Assembly (NCBI RefSeq): GCF_036365525.1
Contig: NC_090387.1
Coordinates: 88,577,691-88,641,690, forward strand
Direction: 5' to 3'
Source: Heterodontus francisci
Taxonomy: Eukaryota
Length of the DNA stretch: 64,000 bases
Both the position numbers and the translations under genes were made by a program. This document shows positions 1,120 to 58,155 of the stretch, piece by piece. The notes under the pieces are model-generated. The model ran no database searches. It saw only the letters and a program-made list of their open reading frames with translations, and had not been told where the DNA came from. How positions within the stretch are numbered: position 1 is the stretch's first letter; the number at the start of each line of letters is the position of its first letter.

Positions 1120-3905
1120 ACGAGCATGCAAACAGACACATTAGGAGCAGGAGTAGGCCACTCAGCCCCTCGAGCCTTCTCCACTATTTAATAAGATCAT
1201 GGCAAACCTGATTATATCTTCAATTCCACATTCCCACCTACCCCCAATAACCTTTCACCCCCTTGATTATCAACAATCTATCTACCTCAGCCTTAAAAAT
1301 ATTCAAGACTCTGCGTCCACCACCTGTCGAAAAAGAGAGTTCCAAATACACACGACTGTCTTAGAGAGAGAGAAAAAAACTCCTCATCTCTGTTTTAAAT
1401 GGGTGACTCCTTTCTTTGAAAGTGACCCCAGAACAGAATTTTACACCCGCCAAAAGATTGAGCTGGTGGCGGGGTGAGGTGGGGTGCGGTGGGAGGGCAG
1501 AGGTGGTGTGTAAATAATTTACACTGGGCAGCGACAGTGAGAAACAGCCCGCACACCCCGGGCCAAGCAAGAGCCTTAGGTGCCTGCCAATATGGGGAAT
1601 TTACGGATAGCTGGCAGGTGGCTGAGGCCTCAGAAAAGCTGTCTGATAAAACTAGGCTGCCTTCTGGCGACCTGTAGGAGGCCCTCATGATAAAGCAAAC
1701 TGAGCCCCACCGACGGCCGCCCCCAATGCCCCAACCACCGCCACAGTTCAACACGCCTCCCACCCCCTAATTGACCTCCCCCCCCCCCCTGCCTTGCAAC
1801 GGCCAGACCGATTGCCCCCGTGAGGCTTCTAAAACGGACTTGTTTTCCGGTGCTCTCCGTCATCGTCATCCTTGAGCTGGGCTGCAGTCTCAGCAGTGGC
1901 CACTGCTCCCAGTAGCACTGCTGGTACTATGAGCTATCGGCTCGCTGATTAGCTGGCAGCGCCATTTGTCTCGTCTTCCTGCCTCAATGAGATGGAAGTC
2001 TCGCCCAACACCAATTAAGGGCCTGGGGACAGGAAAATCTCCACAGGCAGAATCTCCAACGAACCTTTTCAATCGATCGACGGCTCCCCTCGCCCCCCTC
2101 CCAACCAATACAAAATCCAGCCCCGAGTTATAGCTTCACCCACAAGAGGAAACATCTTTTCCACATCCACCCTGTCAAGACCCCTCAGAACCTTATATAT
2201 TTCAATCAAGTCGCATCTTACTCCGCTAAACTTCAGTGGATGCAAGCCTTGCCTCTCCAACCTGTCCTCACAAGGCAAACTGCCAATTCCAGGTATTAGT
2301 CTAGTAAACCTTCTCTGAACTACTTCCAACACATTCACATCCTTCCTTAAATAAGGAAACCAACATTGCATAAAATACTCCAAACATGGTCTCAACAGTG
2401 TCCTGCATAACTGGAGAATAACCTCCCCGCTTTTGTATTCAATTCCCTTCGCATTAAACAGTCATATTCTGTTAGCTTTCCTAATTACTTGCTGTACCTG
2501 CATAAGCACATTTTGTGATTCGTGCACTAGGACATCCAGATCCCTCTGCATCTCAGGGCTCTGAAATCTCTCACAATTTAGATAATATCTTCCTTTTTTA
2601 TTTTTCCTGCCAAAGTGGACAACATTACACTTTCCCACATTATACTCCATTTGCCAGGTCTTTGCTCACTCACTTAACCTATCCATATCTCTTTGTAACG
2701 TCCTTATGCCCTATTCACCAGTTACCTTCCTACCTTTGAGTCATCAGCAAACATAGCAACTATACCTTCAGCCTCTTCTTCCAAGCCATTTATATAAAGT
2801 GTGAAAAGTTGAGGCCTCAGCACTGATCCCTGCGGCACGTAACTCATTACATCTAACCAACCAAAAAAGGACCCAATTATGCCTACTTTCTGTTTCCTGA
2901 TAGCTAGCTAATCTTCTATCCCTGCCAAAATGTTGCCCAATACTCCATGAGAATTTATTTTCTGCAATAACCTTATCAAATGCCTTCTGGAAATCTAAGT
3001 AGAGTACATTCGCTGGCTCTCCTTTATCTACAGCACGTTACTTCTTCGAAGAATTCCAATAAATTGGTTAAACATAATTTCCCTTTCACAGATCCATGTT
3101 GACTTTGACTGATTACCGTGCCTTTTTCGAAGTATGCTGCTATAATGTCGTGAATAATAGCTTCTAACTTTTTCCTGATGGCAGCTGTTAAGCTAATGGG
3201 CCTTAGTTTCCTGCTTTCTGTCTCCATTTTGGAATAAAGAAGTTACATTGGCTATTTTCCAGTCTAATGGAACCTTCCCCGAATCTAGGGAATTTTGGAA
3301 AATTCAAAGCAGCGCATCAGCTATCTCACTAGACACCCCTTTTAAGACCCTGGGATGAAGTCCATCAGAACCCGAGGACCTATCAGCCTGAAGATTAAAA
3401 GTTAGCATGGTTCTACTTCCCTGACAATTGTAATTTTCTTGATTTTCTCCATCCCTTCCATTTCCTGATATACAGCTATTTCCGTTAAGTTACTTTTATC
3501 CTTTATAGTGAAGACCGATGCAAAACATTGCTCAATTCATCTGCCATCTCCTTATTTTCCCTTACTGAATCCCCAGACTCACTTTCGATAGGGACAACGC
3601 TCACTTTGTGAACACTTTCCTTTTAAAAAATATCTATAGAAGCTCTTACGATCTGTTTTAACTTTTCCAGACAGTTTTCTTGTGCTCTATATTTCCCTCC
3701 TTATTAATCTTTTATTTGTTCTTTGCCATTTTATTTTATTCTGTCCAATCGTTTGACCTGCCACCCATCTTTGCGCAATTATATGTTTTTTTTCTTTAAG
3801 TTTGATAATATCTTTAACTTTTTTAGTTAATCTCGGATGGTGGGTCCTCCTCTTGAAATTTTCTTTCACTTTGGAAGATAGCTATTTTGTGTATTCTGAA
3901 ATATT
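1120..3905 (-). mobile_element. Degenerate 5'-truncated CR1 LINE, interrupted by an insertion at about 1432-2123
   Basis: ORF fragments RPISLT...SQHG..KGKLCLTNLLEFFEEVT, MEYNVGKC.VVHFG and LEVVQRRFTRLIPG. 3' UTR near 1120-1200. Confidence 0.88.
1432..2123. mobile_element. Putative non-autonomous GC-rich element nested in CR1
   Basis: Abruptly interrupts CR1 homology. Ends CAGAATTTTAC and ACAAAATCCAGCCC are weak inverted repeats. No coding similarity. Confidence 0.4.
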
Positions 3906-4439
3906 CTGTCCTTTAGTTACTCGGGTCTGGTTGATGTCAGATTTAATCATCGGGCAATAAGTATATAACGTGTTGACTTTGAGCAGTGAAGAAAGAATGG
4001 TTGACAATAAGGAGCTGTACTTGCATATCCAACCCGACCGTTGTGACTGGAGATCACCCTCGTGTAATTTAATGCACAAGAATCAATGTAACGACTTTAA
4101 GCACGCCATTGCATGCTTAGTACAAAGGAACAAACAAAGTTGTGTCACCTGTTTAATAGTATAAATTCTTGTTTGCAATATTATGGCATTTTAATGTGTA
4201 TAGTTTTAAATAAACAATATATCTGACTTTTTTAAAATTGGTGCGAGCTTGTAAAGGCTTCAACCATTATTCTATATTTCAATCATTATAGAAAAGTTAT
4301 GCTTTTGACGGAACACTGACAATATAAGACTGAATCCAGAAATGCTTTAAGGAGATTCATTTGAGTACAATGTCTGGAATATTCGGTCGAATTTTGAAAC
4401 AAAGTAAACGGCACAAATAAAATGGTCTTACCCGATCCT

Positions 4440-7215
4440 GGGATCCTGATGTTGTGGCCATTTCGGAGACATGGGTAGAGCAGGGGCAGGAATGGATGTT
4501 GCAGGTTCCGGGATTTAGATGTTTCAGAAAGAACAGAGAAGAGGGTAAAAGAGGGGGGGGGGGGGGTGTGGCATTGTTAATCAAGGAAAGTATTACAGCG
4601 GCAGAAAGGACGTTTGAGGACTCGTCTACTGAGGTAGTATGGGCCGAGGTTAGAAACAGGAGAGGAGAGGTCACCCTGTTGGGAGTTTTCTATAGACCTC
4701 CGAATAGTTCCAGAGATGTAGAGGAAAGGATAGCGAAGATGATTCTCGACAGGAGCGAGAGTAACAGGGTAGTGGTTATGGGGGACTTTAACTTTCCAAA
4801 TATTGACTGGAAATACTATAGTTCGAGTACTTTAGATGGGTCTGTTTTTGTCCAGTGTGTGCAGGAGGGTTTTCTGACACAGTATGTGGACAGGCCAACC
4901 AGGGGCGATGCCACATTGGATTTGGTACTGGGTAATGAACCCGGCCAGGTGTTCGATTTAGATGTAGGTGAGCACTTTGGCGATAGTGATCACAATTCGG
5001 TTAGGTTTACCTTAGCGATGGGCAGGGACAGGTATATACCACAGGGCAAGAATTATAGCTGGGGGAAAGGAAATTATGACGCGATTAGGCAAGATTTAGG
5101 ATGTGTAGGATGGGGAAGGAAACTGCAGGGGATGGGCACAAACGAAATGTGGAGCTTATTCAAGGAGCAGCTAATGCGTGTCCTTGATAAGTATGTACCT
5201 GTCAGGCAGGGAGGAAGTTGTCGAGCAAGGGAGCCGTGGTTTACTCAAGAAGTTGAAGCGCTTGTCAAGAGGAAGAGGGCGGCTTATGTTAGGATGAGAC
5301 GTGAAGGCTCAGTTAGGGCGCTTGAGAGTTACAAGCTAGCCAGGAAGGATCTAAAGGGAGGGCTAAGAAGAGCAAGGAGAGGACACGAGAAGTCATTGGC
5401 GGATAGGATCAAAGAAAACCCTAAGGCTTTCTATAGGTATATCAGGAATAAACGAATGATAAGAGTTAGAACAGGGCCAATCAAGGATAGTAGTGGGAAG
5501 TTGTGTGCGGAATCAGAGGAGATAGGGGAAGCGTTAAATGAATATTTTTCGTCAGTATTTACAGTAGAGAAAGAAAATGTTGCCGAGGAGATTACTGAGA
5601 TACAGCCTACTAGGCTAGATGGGATTGAGATTCACAAGGAGGAGGTGTTAGCAATTTTGGAAAGAGTGAAAATAGATAAGTCCCCTGGGCCAGATGGGAT
5701 TTATCCTAGGATTCTCTGGGAAGCCAGGGAGGAGATTGCAGAGCCGTTGTTGTTGATCTTCAAGTCGTCATTGTCGACAGGAGTAGTGCCGGAGGACTGG
5801 AGGATAGCAAATGTTGTCCCCTTGTTCAAGAAGGGGAGTAGAGACAGCCCTGGTAATTATAGACCTGTGAGCCTTACTTCGGTTGTGGGTAAAATGTTGG
5901 AAAAGGTTATAAGAGACAGGATTTATAATCATCTTGAAAAGAATAAGTTCATTTGCGATAGTCAGCACGGTTTTGTGAAAGGTAGGTCGTGCCTCACAAA
6001 CCTTATTGAGTTTTTCGAGAAGGTGACCAAACAGGTGGATGAGGGTAAAGCCATGGATGTGGTGTATATGGATTTCAGTAAGGCGTTTGATAAGGTTCCC
6101 CACGGTAGGCTATTGCAGAAAATACGCAAGTATGGGGTTGAAGGTGATTTAGAGCTTTGGATCAGAAATTGGCTAGCTGAAAGAAGACAGAGGGTGGTGG
6201 TTGATGGCAAATGTTCATCCTGGAGTTTAGTTACTAGTGGTGTACCGCAAGGTTCTGTTTTGGGGCCATTGCTGTTTGTCATTTTTATAAACGACCTGGA
6301 TGAGGGTGTAGAAGGGTGGGTGAGTAAATTTGCGGATGACACGAAGGTCGGTGGAGTTGTGGATAGTGTCGAAGGGTGTTGTAGGGTACAGAGGGACATA
6401 GATAGGCTGCAGAGCTGGGCTGAGAGATGGCAAATGGAGTTTAATGCGGAGAAGTGTGAGGTGATTCACTTTGGAAGGAGTAACAGCAATGCAGAGTACT
6501 GGGCTAATGGGAAGATTCTTGGTAGTGTAGATGAGCAGAGAGATCTTGGTATCCAGGTACATAAATCCCTGAAAGTTGCTACCCAGGTTAATAGGGCTGT
6601 TAAGAAGGCATATGGTGTGTTAGCCTTTATTAGTAGGGGGATCGAGTTTCAGAGCCACGGGGTCATGATGCAGCTGTACAAAACTCTGGTGAGGCCGCAC
6701 CTGGAGTATTGCGTGCAGTTCTGGTCACCGCATTATAGGAAGGATGTCGAAGCTTTGGAAAGGGTGCAGAGGAGATTTACTAGGATGTTGCCTGGTATGG
6801 AAGGAAGGTCTTACGAGGAAAGGCTGAGGGACTTGGGGTTGTTTTCGTTAGAGAGAAGGAGGAGGAGAGGTGACTTAATAGAGACATACAAGATAATCAG
6901 AGGGTTAGATAGGGTGGATAGTGAGAGTCTTTTTCCTCGGATGAGGATGGCAAACACGAGGGGACATAGCTTTAAGTTGAGGGGTGAAAGATATAGGACA
7001 GATGTCAGAGGTAGTTTCTTTACGCAGAGAGTAGTAGGGGCGTGGAACGCCCTGCCTGCAACAGTAGTAGACTCGCCAACTTTAAGGGCATTTAAGTGGT
7101 CATTGGATAGACATATGGATGTAAATGGAATAGTGTAGGTCAGATGATCGGCGCAACATCGAGGGCCGAAGGGCCTGTACTGCGCTGTAATATTCTAATG
7201 TAATATTCTTCTAAT
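4440..7215 (+). mobile_element. Young 5'-truncated CR1-clade LINE with 6-bp TSD (GATCCT)
   Basis: Uninterrupted ORF2, short 3' UTR, TAATATTC-type tandem tail at about 7188-7215. GATCCT at 4434-4439 and 7216-7221. Confidence 0.96.
4454..7138 (+). CDS. CR1 ORF2: N-terminally truncated APE endonuclease plus reverse transcriptase (894 codons)
   Basis: ISETW, GDFN, LDLVL and SDHN endonuclease motifs. NYRPVSLTS, DFSKAFDKV, GVPQGSVLGP and SKFADDTK RT motifs. Confidence 0.95.
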   Translation: MAISETWVEQGQEWMLQVPGFRCFRKNREEGKRGGGGGVALLIKESITAAERTFEDSSTEVVWAEVRNRRGEVTLLGVFYRPPNSSRDVEERIAKMILDRSESNRVVVMGDFNFPNIDWKYYSSSTLDGSVFVQCVQEGFLTQYVDRPTRGDATLDLVLGNEPGQVFDLDVGEHFGDSDHNSVRFTLAMGRDRYIPQGKNYSWGKGNYDAIRQDLGCVGWGRKLQGMGTNEMWSLFKEQLMRVLDKYVPVRQGGSCRAREPWFTQEVEALVKRKRAAYVRMRREGSVRALESYKLARKDLKGGLRRARRGHEKSLADRIKENPKAFYRYIRNKRMIRVRTGPIKDSSGKLCAESEEIGEALNEYFSSVFTVEKENVAEEITEIQPTRLDGIEIHKEEVLAILERVKIDKSPGPDGIYPRILWEAREEIAEPLLLIFKSSLSTGVVPEDWRIANVVPLFKKGSRDSPGNYRPVSLTSVVGKMLEKVIRDRIYNHLEKNKFICDSQHGFVKGRSCLTNLIEFFEKVTKQVDEGKAMDVVYMDFSKAFDKVPHGRLLQKIRKYGVEGDLELWIRNWLAERRQRVVVDGKCSSWSLVTSGVPQGSVLGPLLFVIFINDLDEGVEGWVSKFADDTKVGGVVDSVEGCCRVQRDIDRLQSWAERWQMEFNAEKCEVIHFGRSNSNAEYWANGKILGSVDEQRDLGIQVHKSLKVATQVNRAVKKAYGVLAFISRGIEFQSHGVMMQLYKTLVRPHLEYCVQFWSPHYRKDVEALERVQRRFTRMLPGMEGRSYEERLRDLGLFSLERRRRRGDLIETYKIIRGLDRVDSESLFPRMRMANTRGHSFKLRGERYRTDVRGSFFTQRVVGAWNALPATVVDSPTLRAFKWSLDRHMDVNGIV

Positions 7216-7257
7216 GATCCTCCTGCTTAGCAGCATTTACTGATGTTCCCTTCCCAC
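7211..7257 (-). CDS. Gene A exon 5: cytoplasmic exon interrupted by CR1 insertion (GGKGTSVNAAKQEDH*)
   Basis: Strong acceptor TTTTATTTCTCATCAG. Frame runs into the antisense LINE tail and stops at TAG 7213-7211. The last 2 exon nt and the GTAAG donor lie at 4433-4427 on the far side of the LINE. Confidence 0.75.
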
Positions 7258-7784
7258 CTGATGAGAAATAAAATTAAATGAATCACCAAGAACTGCGTTA
7301 TATTTCCATTCAGCACAAACGCCAAGGAAAATAAATGCAAATCTGTTATATGCCAGCTATAATAGGATCATTGTTTTCACAATGTTACTCAAACTGTTAA
7401 AATAGGGCGCAATGATTGTATTATATTTCTTATGATGAAGCTGTGTGAACATCATTGCATGCATGAAATTCACTAATAGAGGGTTAGAACTGCAGCAATA
7501 CAGTTTAGCAAATTATAACGGACAATCTGCTAAGTTGCCGTTTTGATCAATAATTTAGAGTTGAAGCAATATGTATGCTAAACAGTATTTTCTCATCAAT
7601 CTGTTAGTTAAATTGTCCCATTCAGCATTTCGCCTCCCAAATGTTAACTGTAATTATTTTAGTTTATACTTGCATGTAAATTGTTTGCTTCAGGATCAAT
7701 ATTTCCATTAATTTCAAATTTAAATAATGTGTTATAATATGCTGTTAGAAGCTAACCTATTAGGAAAGTGTGGATGGTTCATAC

Positions 7785-7898
7785 CTTTGGATATAATAAA
7801 TAGAATCCCCTTCACAATCAAAATGGCTAATAGGAGAACTACAAGTGCACCACGGGCACATCCAGCTATGATAACACCATCAACTTTAGAGGCACAAT
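7785..7898 (-). CDS. Gene A exon 4: connecting peptide and transmembrane segment (DCASKVDGVIIAGCARGALVVLLLAILIVKGILFIISK)
   Basis: TCTCATAG acceptor, AAAG|GTATG donor, phase 1/1. Hydrophobic stretch that aligns with the gene B TM exon. Confidence 0.85.
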
Positions 7899-8785
7899 CT
7901 ATGAGATTGACATAAAATCAAAATTAGAAATAGGAATGTAAAACGGATATGCAAAGATCTAAATGCTATATACAATATATTATATTTACAGTACATAAAG
8001 CCTCAATAGATCCATTTCATTATCTCTCAATTTAGCTGATGTGTTTTCAGTCTGACACTAAGTTTGAGACACTGTAATCCGGAGAAATGGCAGCAATGAG
8101 AAATCAATATGATCAATTCCTTACCGAATAGTACTCGAATATGTATCTAGAATAAGTGTTCTACTACTTGAAACATTCGGAAAATAATAAATACGTTGTG
8201 TGTTTCATCGGATTAGCCTGTTGCTCAAACTCCGAAAAATGTTATAATGGGGCGTATTTACACATTCATTTGAAATTCTCTTCGCAGCAATGTTTCACTC
8301 AGGCCGTTTTCCATCTTTAAACATGTGCCACCAAATTAACTATCATTCCATGTTTGGTATAGCGTCGAGGGAGTTGCATACTGAAGAGCGGGGACTGAAC
8401 TTGGACTACTTGATGGCTGCAGGTGTGTGCAAAGCTTCACTTACTCTACTCCAACCTTCCAGTCCATATGAACCTTTCTGGTGTATTGAATGATCACTCA
8501 CCGTGCCCTCCCTTTGTTAATTGAAATGTTCAGGAGTTAATCTGAATTATGGGAAGTATTTTGAGCTAATGTCATCTATTGGCTAAGCTGCTTGTGTCCA
8601 ACCTACTTCTCATCCGATCCAAATAACCAAAAGAAATGGAAACTACACCCAAACAACCGGACCAGAGTTCGGCGTCGACAAAATAAAATGCAAACTCCTG
8701 CAGTAATCACCTCCCACAGATTCTTGTATATACCCATTTGTACGATGATCTCGCGATTAAATTACCTCATCTCATATAATGTTAC

Positions 8786-9094
8786 CTTCGTTAGAAACTG
8801 TGTAGCTGGCATTTGCTGGAATTAAGTTAGAAACGTGAAGTACTTGACAGGTGTAAACTGTGCTGCGATCGATTGCCTGTGACACTTTCAAGCAACTGAT
8901 AACTTCATAGAGTCCCTCCGGGGTCTTTGTCTGTTGTTCATTCGTTAATCCAGTCAAGAGTTCCATATCGTTTTTATGCCAGCTGAGGTTAAAGTCCTTC
9001 GGGTAGAAAGCAGATGTTCTGCACTGGAGACTCAGAGGAGCACATGTTACCCCTTCAGATGGTAGGGATAAGATTTTCAGCGGAGCTGGTGTAG
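8786..9094 (-). CDS. Gene A exon 3: C1-set Ig domain
   Basis: Open frame ATPAPLKIL...LSLQCRTSAFYPKDFNLSWHKN...EGLYEVIS...YTCQVLHVS carries the C1 hallmarks (C-x4-FYP, W, YxCxVxH). AAG acceptor and G|GTAAC donor, phase 1/1. Confidence 0.92.
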
Positions 9095-9917: not shown

Positions 9918-10229
9918 CATATACAACCAGTTGCACACCAGTTGTTTCTCCAACTGTATGATACTGGTATTTGGTTACACAGTAATACGTTCCAGCGTCC
10001 GGGACAGTCACATTCAAGAGGTGAAGGTACGCGCCGCCTCTCTTTACACTGAAGAGTTTTCTGTTGTCCTCTTGCAGAAAGGTCTTATTACCGTCTCTCC
10101 ACCAATAAACGATCACGTTTGAATGGTTGAGATTAAAGGAGAAAGGACATCTCAAAATAACATTTGTACCTCTGAGCGCCTTCTTTTCTATAATATCAGG
10201 AGTCGCATTACCCGAGGTGCCCACAGCAA
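9918..10229 (-). CDS. Gene A exon 2: V-set Ig domain with joined J-like G strand
   Basis: TTTGTTGATAG acceptor and G|GTATG donor, phase 1/1. Protein has VILRC, VYWWRDG, LHLLNVTVPDAGTYYC and TVGETTGVQLVVY, i.e. the B-strand Cys, C-strand Trp and DxGxYYC motif. Confidence 0.93.
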
Positions 10230-10570: not shown

Positions 10571-10625
10571 CTGGATACATAATGCCTAGAAAACATATGC
10601 CGCATAACACCCCATTCATAACCAT
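10571..10625 (-). CDS. Gene A exon 1: leader peptide (MVMNGVLCGICFLGIMYP-), phase-1 donor
   Basis: ATG at 10625-10623, 18 mostly hydrophobic codons plus G, then GTATAT donor. Same 55-nt length and phase as the gene B leader exon. Confidence 0.7.
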
Positions 10626-25772: not shown

Positions 25773-28319
25773 GAAGAAGAACAACAACAAGGGGAATACG
25801 AGGAATAAGAAGGTAGTAAGTCAAAGAGTGATCTAGTGTTATTGGCTAGGATTGAGTTAGAAATAAAACAAAACTTAAGGCTGAAAAATGATTAAGAAAA
25901 TATGAACTTCATACAGAAAGAGAAATGAGGGAATATGGGCTAAAATAGATGGTACTAAAAGAAAGGGTTAGTTTTGAATCCAGGGAAAATTCGGGAAGAA
26001 TCTGAATTCAGCTCAGGACCCAGTGAAAAGTTCTTGAAATTGATAAAGGCTCTTCCTACGTTCCAGGGAATGGACATGGCGGCATTTTTCACATCTTTTG
26101 GAAAATAGCCTAACAGATGAAATGGGCAACGGAAAGTTGGCCACTGCTTATGCAAATCAAGTTGGTAGGCAGAGCTCATGAATTGTATGCCATGCTTCCT
26201 GCAGAGGCTTCTGCAGATTATGAGATGGCAAATAAAATCTATTCTCGCTGCCTATGACATAGTCCCTGAAGCTTGCTGTCAGAGATTTCTGAATGCATGG
26301 AGATTGGCCAGTCAGATATAGATAGAATTTGAGAGGGAGAAACAAATTATTTTTGACCGTTGGTTATGTGCAAGAAAGACGGAAACCACATATGTGAAGC
26401 TTCGAGAATTGATTCACTTCGAATAGTATAAAAGACCCCATTCATTCAGCAGTGAGAACTCATGTGGATAACCTCAAAGTTTTGAAAACTAGGCAAGCTG
26501 CAGAAGTTGCTGATGATTTTGAGCTTGTGAATAAATTAACACCTTTTGTCTGTCACCACCATAAACCCAAATAGGAGTGAAAGTGGAAGAGTGAATGGAA
26601 GGCAAATAGAGAGGGACAAGGAGAAACAGGCTGGAAATGCCCCAATATCACCTCCTCAGGTCAGAAATGAAGGTGCTGAGGGTAGAAGTGAGGTTCACAA
26701 GCAAAAGTGTTATCATTGCAACAAAATGGGTCATCGTCGTTCAGAATGCTGGAAATTGTGAGGTAAACCCATAATCCTTGTTGGGAGCATAAAGCTAGTG
26801 CAGAGGGAAACATTCTGACTGAGAGCAAAGTAAACCAGGCTATAGCTTTAACAGCAGTTGTAAAACCGGATACCAAAACTAAAATGAGTGTCGAGATTAA
26901 AAATAATATAATCAAAAGTTAGCATGATTTTTTGTCAAAGGGGAGAGTAACTCCATATCCTCTAAGTGAGGCGCAAAAGCCTATCATTGTCCTTAGGATA
27001 GAGTAGCAGGCCAAACACTCTTGCTGGCGAATAAAATAATGTTTCCACAAGACAGCGCCTTAAACACTAAAGATTTAGTTAATGGAATTGGTTGGAAGTA
27101 TATACATGTACCTTTGTATAAAGTACGCCTAGAGAATGACTTAATACCTTGGACATTAACTGTAGGTATAGTCCACAGTTTGCCTGTAGAGGGAATTGGT
27201 CTATTCCTAGGAAATGATTTGGCTGGGCCAAAACTATCGGTTTCTCCTATTATTACAGAGGAACCAAGTGCAATTAAGGAAATGGAGCAATTACAAGAGC
27301 AAGTTCCAGGAATATTTCCTGTGTGTGCAGTTACCTGAGCAATGGCTAAATAGGATCTATTGTCGGAAGTAAAATGGGCACAACAAATGGGTAGCCAAGT
27401 ATCTGAACCCTTATTTGTGGATTTAGATAATCCAAATGAGATGTTTAACTGACCGTCTATCATTGCTGCACAGCAAGCTGATCCAGAGATATACTGAATG
27501 GCACAGAAGCTGAGGGGAAAAGGGGTTCTGTAAGTCTATTATATGGCAAACTGGGTTTTGAGGAGGAGATGGAGACAACCTAATAGACCTTCAGACGAAA
27601 ACTGGACAGTTGCTGAACAGTGAATGGCACCACCTAAATATTGCCAGAGATTATTAAGGTGAGCAAGTTACATTCATTTTGCAGGACATAGAGGAATTTG
27701 GAAGACCAAATCACGAATGAGCCAACATTATTACTAGCCAGGTCTTACAAATGATGTGAGACAATTTTGTAGGACATGCAATACATGCTAAGTAGTGGGA
27801 AAAACACAACCTATCATAAAACTGCCAACACTTGTTCGCATACCAGTGATTAAGAAGCCTTTTAGCAGGACATTAGTAGACTGTGTAGGACCCTTGTCAA
27901 AAACAAATGCGAGACATCAACACATACTTACTATCATGGATAAAGCTACTCGATTTCTAGAAGCCACTCCTTTGAGGACATATACTGCTGGAATATTAGT
28001 AGAAAAGTTCACCCAATTCTTTACGAGATATGGGTTGGCACTTGAAGTTCAATCAGATCGACTTTCTAATTTCATGTCTAAGATATTTCAAGACGCCATG
28101 GGCGATTTGGGGATTGAACAGTTGAAATCTTCGGCATATCAGTCTTAGTCACGGAGCTTTAGAGAGATTCCACCAAACTCTCAAAACAATGATTAGAACA
28201 TACTGTCACGAATATTCACATGACTGGGATATTGGACGAGACTTTATTTTATTTGACACCAGAGACTAACTGAATGAGTCTGCAGGCTTCAGTCTTTTCA
28301 AATTGCTGTTTTTTTGCCC

Positions 28320-28690
28320 ACTGTTTTGCCCACAAATTGCTGCCCACTGTTTTTTTCAGGTTGTTTTTCTTCAGGTTTGCACTTGCTGCTGTTCAGTATT
28401 CAGTGTATTCACACCTAATCTGTACTAATGCTTTGTCTTTCAACACACCATTAACATATTGTTTGCCTTTTCTCCGTGACCTTTTGGTCAGCTATGTGGC
28501 CTGGTCCAATCTGCACCTTCTCCTTTGTTATCTCTTGCCCCACCCCCACCTCACTTGTTTATAATCTGTGACTTTTCTAATATTTGTCAGTTCCGAAGAA
28601 GGGTCACTGACCTGAAACGTTAACTCTGCTTCTCTTTCCACAGATGCTGCCAGACCTGCTGAGTGATTCCGGCATTTCTTGTTTTTCTTT
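28320..28690 (+). mobile_element. Penelope-like 3' non-coding fragment inserted in the Gypsy integrase
   Basis: Homologous to 12370-12700. Hammerhead variant AGTT-CCGAAGA...GAAACGTT-AACT at 28589-28625. Confidence 0.8.
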
Positions 28691-30269
28691 CAAATTGCTT
28701 TATGGACATGAAGTAAGAGGTCTCCTAAAACCTATAAAATACCGATTCTTTGGAACAAAACAATGAATCCTCGATACTGGACTTTGCGTCTGTGTTCCAG
28801 GAAAAGCTCTTGAAAGCTTGTGGTGTGGCTCAGGATCACTTTAAACAATCGCAACATAATTTGAACAAATGGACATGCAAGAATGTAAAAGCCTGCGATT
28901 TGTAATCAGGGAATGAAGTATTAGTGTTGTTACCATTACAGGGAGACCCATTAAAAGCACAGTTCAGTAGCCCATATAAAGTGATAAAAAGAGTGGGTAA
29001 GGAAGATTACTTGATTGACACCCTTGATTGTCGAAGAAGGACCGGCTGTGTCACATCAATTCGTTAAACCAATATTATCACAGGGAGGAGGATAAGTCAG
29101 TACAAGTATGTCAGGTAATCAGGAGTGTTCAGAAGGAAAAACGGATAGTGAGGATGGGGCAGAAGCAGACCGAGACAATTCTCAGACTGAACCTCAAACC
29201 ATCAGGATAGCGAATACAGAATGGCTAGGCAAATTGGACAATATGCTTTTGAACTTAGAGGCAAAATAACGTGAAGACCTAACCAGGCTTTTCACAACAT
29301 TTAAAAGAGTTTGTGGGGATAATCCAGGATGTACATGCTTAGCCATAAATTATGTGGATATAGGGGGAACTGTTCCTTTAAAACAACATCCTTACTGCTT
29401 GAGTGCAGACAAACAGGCTCAAGTGAAAGTTGAGATCCAGTGCATGTTGAAAGACAATTTGAACGAACTTAATCAAAGTAGCTGGAGTTCACCAGTGGTT
29501 CTAAACCTCAACCTGACGGGTGAACCCGATTTTGTATCGACTATAGAAATGTCAATGCAGGAACAAAAGAAGACTCTGTACCAATTCCACGTTTAGAAGA
29601 CTACATTGAGAGAATGGGGCATCACTAAGTTTCTTACCAGCATTGACTTCTTAAAAGGAGATGGCAAGTAACTATGACTCCTCGAGCCAAAGAGATATCA
29701 GCTTTTCTAAAACCTTACTGTCATAATCAGCGCCGGGTGATGCCTTTCAGGCTAAAAAATGCCCAGCCAATTTTCAAAGATTAATGATTCCGCTGGTAGC
29801 CAGTCCTCTGAACACTGTGTTTTATACTCAATGGTATACTAATATACAGCAACGCTTGGTAAGAATACTTAAACCAGCTAAAAATTCTGTTCAAAAAGTT
29901 ACAAGTCATGGACTTAGTGATATATTTGGGGAAAAAAGTGAATTCGGAAAAGCAAGACTAACTTAGCTCGAACCATACTGGAGCAAGGACAGGTATTGTC
30001 AAAATTGCAGAGGTGCAAGCCTCCATGGAGTTCCCTAACCCTAAATCTAAATAGGAAATAATGAGGTTCTTAGGATGTGCGTTTTTTTTTTACTGGAAAT
30101 GTGTATGAAAGTATAGTACTGTGGATGCTCCGTCAACCGACTTTTGAAAAGCTAAAGGCAATACTAACCAATAAACCACTGTTGGCTGCTCCAAATTTCG
30201 CTAAACCCTTTAAAATATCGATCGATGCTTGCGACCTGCGGGTTGCTGCAGTCCTATTGCAAGATGATA

Positions 30270-43148: not shown

Positions 43149-43259
43149 GTGGTGAGCTCACCCGCTGCCAACTGATTTCTGCAGCTAGATGGGGCGGGTT
43201 GGTATTACTGGTGCTGGGTCTCCTCATTGCAAAGCAATGTATCTCAAAGATAAATAAAG
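43149..43259 (+). CDS. Gene B exon 4: connecting peptide and transmembrane segment (GGELTRCQLISAARWGGLVLLVLGLLIAKQCISKINK)
   Basis: TGTTGCAG acceptor, AAAG|GTAGG donor, phase 1/1. Hydrophobic segment homologous to gene A exon 4. Confidence 0.88.
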
Positions 43260-43394
43260 GTAGGAAATTGTAAGTTTGTGTTCAGGCTTATGTTACTTGA
43301 ACAGAGGTGAGACAGAAAGCCAAACAGTCTCACATTGGTATTCCTTGACCAAGATGGGCTTACAAGATTTACATTCTTTAATCAAGTCAGAGTT

Positions 43395-44356: not shown

Positions 44357-44400
44357 AAGTGCAGAACGATGGCGAAAGATGCGACTATCCTGAGCAGAAG
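44357..44400 (+). CDS. Gene B putative exon 5: 44-nt cytoplasmic exon (EVQNDGERCDYPEQK)
   Basis: Open, phase 1 to 0, AAG|GTATG donor. Same length and phases as the reconstructed gene A exon 5. Acceptor is weak (tandem GAG/AAG). Confidence 0.5.
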
Positions 44401-49204: not shown

Positions 49205-49311
49205 TCAATCAGAGAGCAGCCGATGTGACGGCACCTTATGCTGCACCAGATACGACCAATTTCTGGAAAGCTCCAAGACCAAAGCCTCAAGAAAAGATCG
49301 TGTATGCCAAG
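49205..49311 (+). CDS. Gene B cytoplasmic exon (VNQRAADVTAPYAAPDTTNFWKAPRPKPQEKIVYAK)
   Basis: TTTGTGTCTTGCAG acceptor, with an alternative in-frame CAG acceptor giving a start at 49213, and AAG|GTAGG donor. Contains two Tyr motifs. Confidence 0.72.
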
Positions 49312-49523
49312 GTAGGTTGGAGATACATGCCTAACGGAAAATGAATAATTTCAATTCACACGTTATGCAGTTTAGTATATGAAACGTCCTAAATGCTAAA
49401 ATAGTAATCTGTTGCATTTAACGCTAATTCTGCGAGGCTCTATCTATTCCAATAACTACTTAACAGTGGACTACAGTCAGATAAAACATGCAACTAATGA
49501 TATTCGCAAAATTGATTTCACAG

Positions 49524-49652
49524 ACCAACCAAAGGTCACCGGGTAATAAACTGACCCAAGCTGCTCTTGATATGACAGGCTTAAAGGGAACAGCAACGCC
49601 TAATTGTAACGACACCAGCACGGAGTTTGCTCAGGTTCGGATGGAAAAGTAA
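49524..49652 (+). CDS. Gene B terminal exon (TNQRSPGNKLTQAALDMTGLKGTATPNCNDTSTEFAQVRMEK*)
   Basis: TTTCACAG acceptor, phase 0, open to TAA 49650-49652. Resembles the ITIM/ITSM-bearing end of SIRP-type tails. Confidence 0.75.
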   Translation, partial: TNQRSPGNKLTQAALDMTGLKGTATPNCNDTSTEFAQVRMEK

Positions 49653-52559: not shown

Positions 52560-55500
52560 TAATGGGATATGAACGTCAGTTGGAAATCCCCAACTGCTCT
52601 TGAGTAGGTTGTGGGAGCCGCCTTCTTGAATCATTGCAGTACACCTGGTATAGTTGCAACCCCTATGCTGTTAGGAAGGGATTTCCAGGTTTCTGAGCCA
52701 GAGACAGTGAAGGAATGGCGATATTATTCCAAATCAGTATGGTGTGTAGCTTGGAAGGGAATTAGAAGTAGTGGTTTATCCAGGGGTCTTCTGGCCATGG
52801 CCTTCGAGATACGGGAGTTTGTGGGTTTGGAAGGTTCTGTCGAAAGAGGTTTAGCGAGTTGCTGCAATGCATCTTGTATAGGTTACACACTGCTGCAATT
52901 GTATGCCAGGGTGGAGGGAGTGAATGTTTCATATTGTGGATGGTGTGCTGTTCAAGTGGGCTGCCTTGCCTTGGATGATGTCGAGCTTGTTGAATGTTGT
53001 TGGAGATGCAAAATGGGGTATTCCATCACACTTCTGACGTGCTGTGTAGATGGTGGACCGGTTTTGGGAAGTCAGGAGTTGAGTTACTTGCCACAGAATT
53101 CTCAGACTCTGAGCTGCTCTTGCACCCACAATATTCGTATGGCTGGTCCAGTTGCGTTTCCGGTTCATGGTAACACGGCATGTTAATGGCAGACGATTCA
53201 TCAATACTAATGCTGCTGAATATCAAGGGAAAATGATTAGATTTTCTTTAGTTGCAGATGGTTATTGCTTGGCACTAGTATGGTACGAATGTTAGTTGCC
53301 ATTTATTAGCCCATGCCTGATTGTTGTCCAGGTATTGCTGCATGTGCACCTGCACTGTTCCATATATGAAGAGTCCGGAATTGTACTGAACACTGCAGAC
53401 ATCAACAAGCATTCCTACTTCTGACTTGATGGTGGAAGGAACATCATTAATGACGCTGCTTAAGATCGCTGAGTCCAGTCCAGTACCCTGAAAAACTGCT
53501 GCATTGATATCCTGGGGCTTAGATATTTCGCTCACAACAACCTCATCCCTGTTTCTTTGTGCTAGGTATGGCTCCAGCCAGTGGAGAGTTTTCCACTGAT
53601 TCCCATTGAATTCATTTTTGCTAGGGCTTCCTGATTCCACACTTGGTTGGCCAAATGTTGGCTTGACGCTAATGGCAGTTACTCTCTCCACACCTCTGGA
53701 ATTCAGCTCTTTGGCCCATGTTTCAATCAAGGCTATAATGAGGTCTAGAGCGGAGTGACCCTGGAAGAACCCAAACTGAACATCAATGAGCAGGTTTTTG
53801 CAATGTGAGTGTTGCGTGATAGCACTGTCGAAACCATGTTGCATCATTTTGCTGATTATCGAGAATAGACGATCAGGGTAGTGATTGGTAGCCAGATTGG
53901 ATTTGTCGTTCTTCTTGAGGGCAGGACATACATGGGTACTTTTCTACAACGTCAGGGAGATGCCAGTGTTATAGGTGTACTGGAATGGCTTGGCCAGGGG
54001 CGCAGTTAATTCTGAAAAACTAATCTTCAGTACGACTGCTGTGTTACCTTTGTTCTATCCAGTGCCTTCAGCCGTTTATGTTTATCACTAGAAGTAAATC
54101 GAATTGCCTGAAGACTGTCAACTGTGATATTTGGGAGCTTAGGAAGAGGCCGAGATGGAGCATCCACTGGGCGCTTCCGGCTGAAGACGGTTCAAAGGAT
54201 TCAGCCTTGTGTTTTTTCACTGACTTTCTGGGCTCTTCCATCTTTGAGGAGTTGTGGAGCATTTTCCACCAGTTAGCTGCTTAGTTGTCCACCACCTTTA
54301 GTAACTGGCAGAACTGCAATACAATTATATGATCCCTTGGTTCAGGGACCGCTTATTTCTGTTCATCGCCTGTTTAGCATGCATGTTATCTTGTGTTGTA
54401 GCCTGGTTGTACGTTGGCACTTCATTTTTAGCAATGCCAGATGCTGCTCCTTGTATGCTCTCCTGCACTCCTCATTGAACCAGGAGTAATTCTGTGGCTT
54501 TATGGATAACAGTAGAGTGAGAAATATGACGGGCTGTGGTTGAGTACAAGTTAGTTTCCGTCTTTGGCTTATAGCACCTCATAGTTGCCCTGTTTTGAGC
54601 TGCTAAATCTGTTCTGAATTGATGCCATTTTACTGGGTGGTACTGCACACAACGTGATGGATGGTATTCTTTGCGAGATTTTGACTCAACAAGGACTATG
54701 CAGTGGTCACTTCGACAAAAGCTGTCATCGACAGATGCGTCTGGAACAGGTAGATTGGTGAGGTCGTGGTGAAGCAGGTTTTTCCCTTTATTTGACCTCT
54801 CAGCAGCTGCCACACGCCCAGCGTGACAATGATGCCCTAGAGGCCGTGGCCAGCTCGGTCTGCAATGGTGTTACAGAGCCATTCTTGGGGATGGGCATCG
54901 ATGTCCTCCACCCAGAGTACATTATGTGCTTTTGCCAAGTTGTGTTCAACATGGAGGAGTGTAGATTCATCAGCTTTGGGAAGCATTACATTGCAATCAA
55001 CAGGTGATTTCCTTGCTCATGTTCGACTTGATGCCATGAAGTTTCATGGGGTCCAGAGACAAAATTGAGGCCTCCCAGGGGCCTTCTCTCCCGACTACAT
55101 CACACCACTGTGCTGTCACTCTGGTGGGTCACTCCTGCCGGCGGGATAAAGAACAAAGAACAAAGAACAGTACAGCACAGGAACAGGCCATTCGGCCCTC
55201 CAAGACTGCGCGGATCTTGATGCCTGCCTAAACTAACACCTTCTGCACTTCCGGGGCCCATATCACTCTATTCCCTTCCTATTCATGGATTTGTCAAGAT
55301 GTCCCTTAAACATCGCTATCGTATCTGCTTCCACCACCTCCCCTGGCAGCAAGTTCCAGGCACTCACCACCCTCTGTGTAAAGAAACTTGCCTCGCACAT
55401 CCCCTCTGAACTTTGCCGCTTGCACCTTTAACCTATGTCCCCTAGTAACTGACTCTTCCACCCTGAGAAAAAGCTTCTGACTATCCACTCTGTCCATGCC

Positions 55501-58155
55501 ACTTATAACTTTGTAAACCTCTATCATGTCGCCCCTTCGTCGGTTCCAGTGAAAATAATCCGAGTTTTTCCAACCTCTCCTCAGAGCTAATGCCCTCCAG
55601 ACCAGGCAACATCCTGGTAAACCTCCTCTGTACCCTCTCCAAAACCTCCACGTCCTTCTGGTAGTGTGGCGACCAGAATTGCACGCAATATTGTAAGTGT
55701 GGCCTAACTAAGGTTCTGTACAGCTGCAACATGACTTGCCAATTTTTATACTCTATGCCCCGTCCGATGAAGGCAAGCATGCCATATACCTTCTTGACTA
55801 CCTTATCCACCTGCGTTGCCACTTTCATTGACCTGTGGACCTGTACGCCCAGATCTCTCTGCCTGTCAATACTACTAAGGGTTCTGCCATTTACTGTATA
55901 CCTCCCACCTGCATTAGACCTTCCAAAATGTATTACCTCACATTTGTCCGGATTAAACTCCATCTGCCATTTCTCCGCCCAAGTCTCCAACCGATCTATA
56001 TCCTGCTGTATCCTCTGACAATCCTCATCATTATCCACAACTCCACCAACCTTTGTGTCATCCGCAAACTTACTAATCAGACCAGCTACATTTTCCTCCA
56101 AATCATTTATATATACTACAAACAGCAAGGGTCCCAGCACTGATCCCTACAGAACACCACTAGTCGCATTTCTCCATTCAGAAAAACACTCATCCACTGA
56201 TACCCTCTGTCTTCTATGACTGAGCCAGTTCTATATCCATCTTGCCAGCTCACCTCTGATCCCGTGTGACTTCATCTTTTGCACCAGTCTGCCATGCAGG
56301 ACCTTGTCAAAGGCTTTACTAAAGTCCATATAGATAACATCCACTGCCCTTGCTTCATCAATCATCTTCGTCACTTCCTCAAAAAACTCAATCAAATTAG
56401 TAAGATACGACCTCCCCTTCACAAAACCATGCTGTCACTTGCTAATAAGTTTGTTTGTTTCCAAATGGGAGTTAATCCTGTCCCGAATAATCCTCTCTAA
56501 TAGTTTCCCTAACACTGACGTAAGGCTCACCGGCCTATAATTTCCTGGATTATTCTTGCCACCATTATTAAACAAAGGAACAACATTGGCTATTCTCCAG
56601 TCCTCTGGGACCTCACCTGTAGCCAATGAGGATGCAACGATTTATGTCAAGGCCCTGGCAATTTCCTCCTTTGCCTCCCTCAGTATTCTGGGGTAGATCC
56701 CATCAGGCCCTGGGGACTTATCTACCTTAATGCTTTGCAAGACACCCAACACCTCCTCCTTTTTGATAATGAGATGACTGAGACTATCTGCACTCCCTTC
56801 CCTAGGCTCATCATCCACCAAGTCCTTCTCTTTGGTGAATACTGATGCAAAGTACTCATTTAACACCACGCCCATTTCCTCTGGCTCCACACATAGATCC
56901 CCGTCTCTGTCCTTGAGTGGGCCAACCCTTTCCTTGGATAATCTCTTGCTCTTCATTTATGTATAAAAAGCCTTGGGACTTTCCTTAATCCTGTTTGCCA
57001 ATGACTTTTCATGACTCCTTCTAGCCCTCCTAACTCCTTGCTTAAGTTCATTCCTACTGTCTTTGTATTCCTCAAGTGCTTCATCTGTTCCTAGCCTTCC
57101 AGCCCTTACAAATGCTTCCTTTTTCTTTTTGACTAGGCTCACAATATCCCGTGTTATCCAAGCTTCCCGAAACTTGCCAAACTTGTCTTTCTTCCTCACA
57201 GGAACATGCTGGTCCTGGATTCTAATCAGCTGATGTTTGAATGACTCCCACATGTCAGATGTTGATTTATCCTCAAACAGCCGCCCCCAATCTAAATTCT
57301 TCAGGTCCTGCCTAATATTGTTACAATTAGCCTTCCCTCAATTTAGCACCTTCACCCGAGGACTACTCTTATCCTTATCCACAAGTACCTTAAAACTTAT
57401 GGAATTATGGTCACTGCTCCCGAAATGCTCCCCTACTGAAACTTCGACCACCTGGCCGAGCTCATTCCTCAATACCACGTCCAGAATGGCCCCATCCAAT
57501 AGTTGGAGTATCTACATACTGTTTCAAGAAGCCCTCCTGGATGCTCCTCACAAATTCTGCCCCATCCAAGCCCCTAGCACATGGTATGGCGCTGGAGGTG
57601 TCTGAGACTTTTGCAGCAAAGTATGATTCAGTGAGTATGAATATGCCAAGCTGTTTCTTTACAATTCTGTGGACAACTCTCCCAACTTTGGCAAAAGTTC
57701 CCAGATGTTAGTAAAGAAGAATAAGCAGGATGGAATGGAAAGCGTATGCCACTGTGGCATCTGGTGCCAAGGTCAATATCAGGTGGTCTGTGTGGTTTTA
57801 TTGTTCCTCGACCTTTCATCAGCAGTTTGGTACAACTGAATGTTTTGCCAGGCCAAATTAGAGGGAAGTTAAGAGGCAATCACATTGCTGTGTGTCAGGA
57901 GTCACGTCTATGCCAGGCCGGGTACATACAACAGATTTCCTTCCCTAAAGGACATTAGCAAACCAGTCGTTTATTTTTTTTTTGACAATCCAGCAGTTTC
58001 ATGACCACCATTACTGAGACTAGTTTTTAATTCCAGATTTATTAATTAATTGAATTTAAGTTCAGTAGCTGCCGTGGTGCGAGTTGAACTCATGGCCTCC
58101 AAGCATTGGTTGGGGCCTCTGGATTACCAGTACATGAACATTACCACTATCCCGG
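52560..58155 (-). mobile_element. Long decayed second-family LINE, split by a CR1 at 55147-57580
   Basis: QFGFFQGHSALDLI, WANKWQLTF, RSDHCIVLVE and 5' region at 57590-58150. Confidence 0.75.
55147..57580 (-). mobile_element. Moderately young CR1 LINE (a few stops and frameshifts)
   Basis: Consecutive ORFs 57253-55481 homologous to 4454-7138 (ISKFADDTK). (TTCTTTG)n tail. Confidence 0.93.

Follow-up and report, generated by a model that had tools for sequence, protein, structure and literature searches.

What does a retrotransposon take from a receptor gene when it lands in the exon for its cytoplasmic tail, a working tail or the remains of one? The question is raised by a 64,000-nt stretch of the 6.0 Gb genome of Heterodontus francisci (G000:C17:88577691-88641690; hereafter the window, to which plain coordinates refer), in which a long interspersed nuclear element (LINE) of CR1 type interrupts the short cytoplasmic exon of a gene that we call gene A. 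Gene A encodes a shark immunoglobulin (Ig) receptor of V-C1-transmembrane (TM) type; it lies on the minus strand, with leader, V-set, C1-set and TM exons followed by the short cytoplasmic exon that starts at 7257, and its V exon is 100% identical to the NCBI H. francisci protein XP_067905013.1 (P0001). The original prediction, made from the letters of the window, had read the locus as a recent and possibly polymorphic insertion that truncates the receptor tail. The insertion and the new stop in gene A are confirmed here, and the account that we consider probable is that the tail had decayed first and that the LINE changed the protein little.

The insertion and its empty site

Excision in silico of 4440-7215 and one GATCCT copy yields a 44-nt exon, GGKGTSVNAAKQEDR, which runs from phase 1 to phase 0 and ends at a GTAAG donor at 4431. 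The junctions, the GATCCT duplication and the rebuilt exon are as first described, and so is the 44-nt exon of gene B (44357-44400, AG/GT ends) with which the last had been compared. Gene B was rejected as the best model of the empty site, however, paralogs C (L002) and D (L003), 140 and 225 kb away, being far closer: a flank search found in both an uninterrupted 44-nt exon ending in CGG directly before GTAAG. The paralog C sequence passes straight into the intron that follows window position 4433, and the joining of 4433 to 7216, which had been proposed as a check, comes out favourably in both paralogs. All the marks of an insertion by a retrotransposon without long terminal repeats are therefore present, namely an empty site in paralogous loci, a target-site duplication and a tail at the 3′ junction. 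A further GATCCT at 4442-4447 was considered as a second target duplication and rejected as LINE-internal sequence: in 20 of 30 copies of the LINE family the 14 letters preceding the probe are the same and finish with GGGATCCT, which also makes CCT at 4437-4439 a 3-nt microhomology between target and LINE. Loose contig ends of other LINE copies start before 4437.

With the LINE in place the spliced frame of gene A is 278 amino acids long and has the C-terminus QEDH-TAG, as had been predicted (about 278 amino acids), and the NCBI model has the same C-terminal end. The 834 coding nt upstream of the LINE contain no stop or frameshift, and the donor is indeed stranded, with the LINE between it and the rest of the exon. 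The model XP_067905013.1 also carries an additional N-terminus before the signal peptide (residues 1-134, from about 10626 upward on the minus strand); this is missing from the model of paralog C and is probably a prediction artefact.

DNA contigs of run X1 (3801-4466 and 7175-7608) span both junctions with 0 differences from the assembly, although this run may be the assembly's own sample and is then not fully independent of it. The contigs are unbranched at both junctions, with depths of 6.5 and 9.8 compared with about 9-11 on unique flank, which favours homozygosity. No empty allele was seen in this one informative individual among the joints listed, in contigs that drop rare variants and could hide a low-depth joint; runs X8 (capture) and X9 (restriction site-associated DNA), from other individuals, cover the unique junction flanks at about 1x or not at all. 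The suggestion that the insertion might be polymorphic has so far found no support.

Decay of the downstream exons and age of the insertion

Paralog C (P0002, 357 amino acids) has two further exons, which encode two immunoreceptor tyrosine-based inhibitory motifs (ITIMs), LTYLAL and LVYAAV. Their counterparts in gene A, exons 6 and 7, lie 11 kb outside the window (G000:C17:88566573-88566214) and differ from those of C at 36 of 236 nt (15%). The acceptor of exon 6 has changed from CCAG to GTGG, the exon contains two in-frame TAA codons, ITIM1 has a 1-nt deletion and a TAA stands directly after ITIM2. Exon 6 shows no signal of constraint against C (ratio of non-synonymous to synonymous divergence, dN/dS, 1.76), and the end of exon 7, with 8 non-synonymous or nonsense changes vs 1 synonymous, is compatible with no constraint.

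Compared with this, the LINE is very young. Two short LINE probes have 1,901 and 4,519 exact matches in the genome. The window copy was compared with 30 copies over its 5′ half and 30 over its 3′ half, per-site counts in the latter being limited to copies more than 97% identical; it is unlike every covering copy at four sites and unlike most at 5761, and it has a longer G run (4549-4562 on the plus strand, 6 nt longer than in most copies, with the frame kept). The variant at 6322 is common to 26 copies, six of which were examined, and two of these copies, L110 and L111, also share the 5041 and 5761 variants and are 99.83% identical to the window LINE. A count of four private substitutions was accordingly rejected, as two of the four, together with the minority variant at 5761, are common to L110 and L111. 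The private substitutions then number 2 over about 2,760 bp, or 0.07% (95% range 0.009-0.26%). With the epaulette shark mutation rate of 7e-10 per site per generation (PMC10587355) this corresponds to 0.1-3.7 million generations, or far fewer if the substitutions are reverse transcriptase (RT) errors or changes in the source copy. The predicted youth of the insertion thus stands, and the family is very young and abundant; ‘young’ is relative here and does not imply polymorphic. L110 and L111 themselves lie 12.7 kb apart (G000:C16:97.62 and 97.63 Mb) with the same four differences from the window LINE, and probably descend from a single insertion of the same sub-lineage that was duplicated locally.

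Per lineage, the divergence of the ITIM exons is about 100 times that of the LINE (29 times at the upper bound), and the probability of at least five changes of any kind in the ITIM-exon stretch since the insertion is P ≤ 6e-4, which argues that the inhibitory tail of gene A died before the LINE arrived. As exon 6 is in phase 0-0, skipping it and using the intact exon 7 acceptor would add 14 tyrosine-free residues; the other routes open before the LINE would add 8 residues by way of a cryptic AG in exon 6, or 24 by read-through. What the insertion cost gene A was therefore probably some 14 residues without any motif, and not a working inhibitory tail. Of the predicted tail truncation, the shortening of the protein by the LINE stop stands; the weight first placed on it was too high, the inhibitory exons having already carried five disabling changes. 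The LINE is more useful as a dated marker, against which the death of these exons can be seen to be far earlier.

Structure of the LINE

Features of the insertion, the LINE and gene A are collected in Table 1. The copy is without ORF1 and, compared with a longer copy, without about the first 25 endonuclease residues, so that it would give no full ORF2 protein by itself. Its endonuclease and RT domains lie in a single open reading frame, a CR1 feature according to PMC8665684; a 3′ hairpin with a microsatellite is likewise given as a CR1 mark in PMC8665684 and PMC4316615. The hairpin in the window copy is modest (z −2.14; 9 of 200 shuffles fold equally well). Copies of the family end in (ATTCTA)n-type tails, of which the window copy has an irregular form. 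For the RT half the best named matches are RT proteins of birds and turtles, mostly at 50-57% identity, and none of them is labelled CR1. The likeness to avian and turtle CR1 LINEs thus lies in the one reading frame for endonuclease and RT, the 3′ hairpin with microsatellite and the 5′ truncation, and the placing in the clade is tentative. The difference is in the tail, where amniote CR1 has the octamer ATTCTRTG; this is missing from the tail of the shark LINE, whose unit is the hexamer ATTCTA, and because of this we file the element only as CR1-type. A shark LINE, HER1, has been named as the partner of the HE1 short interspersed nuclear element (SINE) (PMC3747384).

Elsewhere the window contains what we take to be several older broken CR1-type copies (55306-57337 on the minus strand and others), SINE-like pieces and gypsy-like integrase fragments (about 27000-29600).

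Table 1. Positions in the window of the insertion site, the LINE and the parts of gene A
Feature	Position	Strand	Remark
Left target-site copy, GATCCT	4434..4439	+	last 3 nt also fit LINE family (5′ microhomology)
Right target-site copy, GATCCT	7216..7221	+	
5′-truncated CR1-type LINE, 2,776 bp	4440..7215	+	antisense to gene A
Open frame, 905 codons, Exo_endo_phos and RVT_1	4421..7138	+	stop to stop; first few codons from flank
LINE 3′ untranslated region	7139..7215	+	hairpin and irregular (ATTCTA)n-type tail with 13-nt slippage duplication
LINE-supplied TAG after codon 278	7211..7213	-	His replaces Arg; spliced-frame translation
Candidate poly(A) signal AATAAA in antisense LINE	6626..6631	-	consensus match only; about 580 nt past new stop
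Gene A leader exon	10571..10625	-	leader-to-V splice present in gene-A-specific contig, run X5
Gene A V-set exon, J-like end	9918..10229	-	
Gene A C1-set exon	8786..9094	-	
Gene A TM exon, A-specific Arg (GCARGALVV)	7785..7898	-	Gly in C, Ala in D
Gene A 44-nt cytoplasmic exon, first 42 nt	7216..7257	-	acceptor precedes 7257
Gene A 44-nt exon, last 2 nt, and stranded GTAAG donor	4427..4433	-	GT at 4431-4430

Gene A, paralog C and their family

Gene A belongs to a large family: of 72 candidates scored against its V exon at least 43 match, every one of them on C17, and the nearest are C (94%), E (63%) and D (62%). A search for orthologs with the C1-TM-tail region of gene A returned only A and C. 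The two are clustered and have highly similar ectodomains, and divergence between them rises along the gene, from 3.5% in V through 9.0% in introns 1-2 and 14.1% in introns 3-4 to 17% where intron 5 begins; the intron contrast (1-2 vs 3-4, Fisher p 8e-5) points to homogenization confined to the ligand-binding part. Homogenization over the ectodomain is described for paired receptors in PMC3210942. The A-C dN/dS is 0.51 in V, 1.03 in C1 and 0.43 in TM, and derived changes in V and C1 are split evenly (6 vs 7) between the two genes.

At the level of sequence C carries its two ITIMs and A has none, with a TM Arg of its own. In this paired-receptor pattern gene A would seem to be the partner with the short tail and the Arg, and C the one with the ITIMs. 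A membrane-proximal Arg is the means by which one class of activating receptors binds Fc-gamma or CD3-zeta, and activating partners are said to arise repeatedly and to be short-lived (both PMC4258407). Among 156 proteins examined (8 + 148), 91 were at most 500 amino acids long, 85 of these had a C1 motif and 60 of these a TM segment; no ITIM-like motif was present in 10 of the 13 with a TM Arg vs 17 of the 47 without (p 0.012, uncorrected for kinship, with A and C included and some models perhaps truncated). A TM exon of a zeta-type adaptor, with Asp, is present in the genome.

Gene B (43150-43260, 49206-49312 and 49525-49650, plus strand) has a TM Arg too (ISAARWGGLV). In its final tail exon neither tyrosine of the family motifs is left (KLTQAAL, TEFAQV), though IVYAK may still be encoded in the exon before. 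The adjoining gene at C17:88.516-88.534 Mb lacks the Arg and has kept its tyrosine motifs, so that the two are possibly a second pair. The ITIM exons of D are present twice, 1,018 bp apart and with identical translations (G000:C17:88821622-88823013, L027-L028), as a recent tandem duplication or an assembly duplication. Between D and E there are a 44-nt-like exon (G000:C17:88848557) and a pair of tyrosine-motif exons (88874008-88874376), with no V or C1 exon found there, and E itself (88.897 Mb) gave no TM match in the stretch fetched.

Transcription and the 3′ end of the mRNA

Run X5 is only guessed to be RNA, and its contigs were sorted by the differences between A and C. Joints spliced from 10571 to 10229 and from 9918 to 9094 are present in it. 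Paralog C accounts for records 11 and 15 (depth 39-42), and exact matches to gene A are given by record 16, a leader-V contig of depth 10, and by record 12, a C1 contig of depth 19, showing that gene A is transcribed and 5′-spliced in this run.

The main possible effect of the LINE is on the mRNA and not on the protein. Under the exon-junction rule of nonsense-mediated decay (NMD) a LINE-derived terminal exon would escape, and onward splicing would invite decay. The antisense LINE could serve as such a terminal exon by way of its AATAAA, giving a stable mRNA; alternatively the transcript could be spliced onward to exon 7, in which case the LINE stop would invite NMD. Donor-like sites on the gene strand of the LINE lie at 6814, 5997 and 5877.

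Weighing the explanations

On the account that we regard as probable, a young CR1-type LINE inserted antisense to gene A by target-primed reverse transcription, three bases ahead of the donor of the 44-nt exon, with 5′ truncation at the 3-nt microhomology, and its antisense tail supplies the stop that leaves a 278-residue protein with a 15-residue tail. The inhibitory tail had been lost long before. As the exon 6 acceptor is dead, we infer that the likeliest mRNA before the LINE skipped exon 6 and read the 14 tyrosine-free residues of exon 7, in which case the effect on the protein would be R278H together with their loss. Several observations weigh against this. In run X5 depth is absent from 7355 to 8776 and over both the TM and the 44-nt exon in gene A, although a hole of this kind proves nothing. 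The evidence of constraint between A and C is weak (dN/dS 0.62 over V, C1 and TM, with C1 near neutrality), gene conversion could hide decay, and conserved sites of the C1 domain have changed in A (an NGT sequon lost, an extra Cys gained), though derived changes are as many in C. The Arg of gene A stands 31 residues past the C1 motif, compared with 25-30 in 12 other Arg-bearing members. Finally, a new CAG 5 nt into exon 7, together with the 1-nt deletion, restores the frame and gives TDYLAL and LVYTMV if exon 6 is skipped, so that an isoform with an ITIM may have persisted until the LINE arrived.

The first two of these points could mean that gene A makes no membrane receptor at all, being a transcribed pseudogene or encoding a secreted V-C1 protein that ends in intron 3 (stop after NEGNII), with the LINE irrelevant or a final knock-out through NMD. 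The X5 contigs specific to gene A cover leader-V, C1 and some of intron 2, the frame of C1 meets a stop within a few codons of the intron, and the short life reported for activating paired receptors (PMC4258407) would fit. The TM exon, however, is undamaged, as are its splice sites, although it is not homogenized with C (13% different), and the dN/dS of this exon is the lowest of the three; the 834 coding nt are free of lesions, compared with the five of the tail exons (P about 6e-4; 0.08 on TM and the 44-nt exon alone), and the hole in X5 may be an effect of filtering. We judge this reading unlikely.

Similarly, the new CAG could mean that the LINE abolished a working tail, if gene A had skipped exon 6 and used the +5 acceptor to keep the LVYTMV ITIM and a TxYxxL motif. 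The CAG and the deletion total 6 nt and restore the frame exactly, and the new TAA immediately follows the exon 7 motif. Against this, the upstream canonical CAG of exon 7 is intact and stands directly after the pyrimidine tract, and the changes in the would-be coding end of the exon are not different from neutral; because this end is compatible with no constraint, we think a working tail at the time of insertion improbable.

It is also conceivable, but doubtful, that gene A is an independent activating partner in a shark V-C1 paired-receptor family and that the LINE was co-opted as its terminal exon, giving stop and poly(A) signal and fixing the short tail. The new TM Arg, the lost ITIM exons and the homogenized V domain would fit such a partner; a complex prediction for the TM segment and tail of gene A with two copies of the zeta-type adaptor TM scored 0.02, which counts neither for nor against it. 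Were an activating receptor expressed with a working 3′ end that comes from the LINE, this would be a clear example of an inhibitory-to-activating switch brought to completion by a retrotransposon. A misjoining of a high-copy LINE into the exon during assembly is very improbable, in spite of the thousands of near-identical copies in its family, given the clean target-site duplication with microhomology and the short-read contigs that bridge both junctions, even if these come from the assembly's own sample.

Comparison with known systems

A young LINE in an exon of a member of a large immune gene family is a known kind of event, and recurrent structural variation in immune genes has been reported (PMC13320814). 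A literature search, with most subscription papers and supplements outside its range, found no account of a shark ITIM or paired V-C1 family, of the CR1 elements of this species, of paired receptors made by retrotransposons or of this insertion.

In architecture the shark family resembles UrIg and the NKp30-type non-rearranging VJ-C1 genes of the Ig superfamily (PMC10751288), and SIRP-like genes, in that a C1-set domain comes after an unsplit V exon with a J-like end. The PDB sequence matches include UrIg2 and SIRP-alpha, and the automatic database names of the shark relatives are ‘PTPNS1-like’, ‘NCR3LG1-like’ and ‘tapasin-related-like’. It differs from these in having one C1 domain, a TM segment and an ITIM-bearing or short tail, and in its V-exon matches, at least 43 and all on C17.

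In organization the closer likeness is to the paired receptors KIR, Ly49, PIR and NKG2/KLRC (PMC3210942, PMC4258407). As in these, A and C are neighbouring paralogs with near-identical ligand-binding domains, one partner having two ITIMs and the other a TM Arg without a tyrosine motif; homogenization is strongest in the ectodomain, and disabling events gather in the short-tailed partner. Unlike these, the shark pair has a V-C1 architecture, its stop is now derived from a LINE, and it is known from sequence; the Arg of gene A is also placed deeper, by about three residues, than that of the other family members with an Arg. In the A/C pair a cartilaginous fish shows the signature of the inhibitory-to-activating turnover that is known from KIR and Ly49 of mammals.

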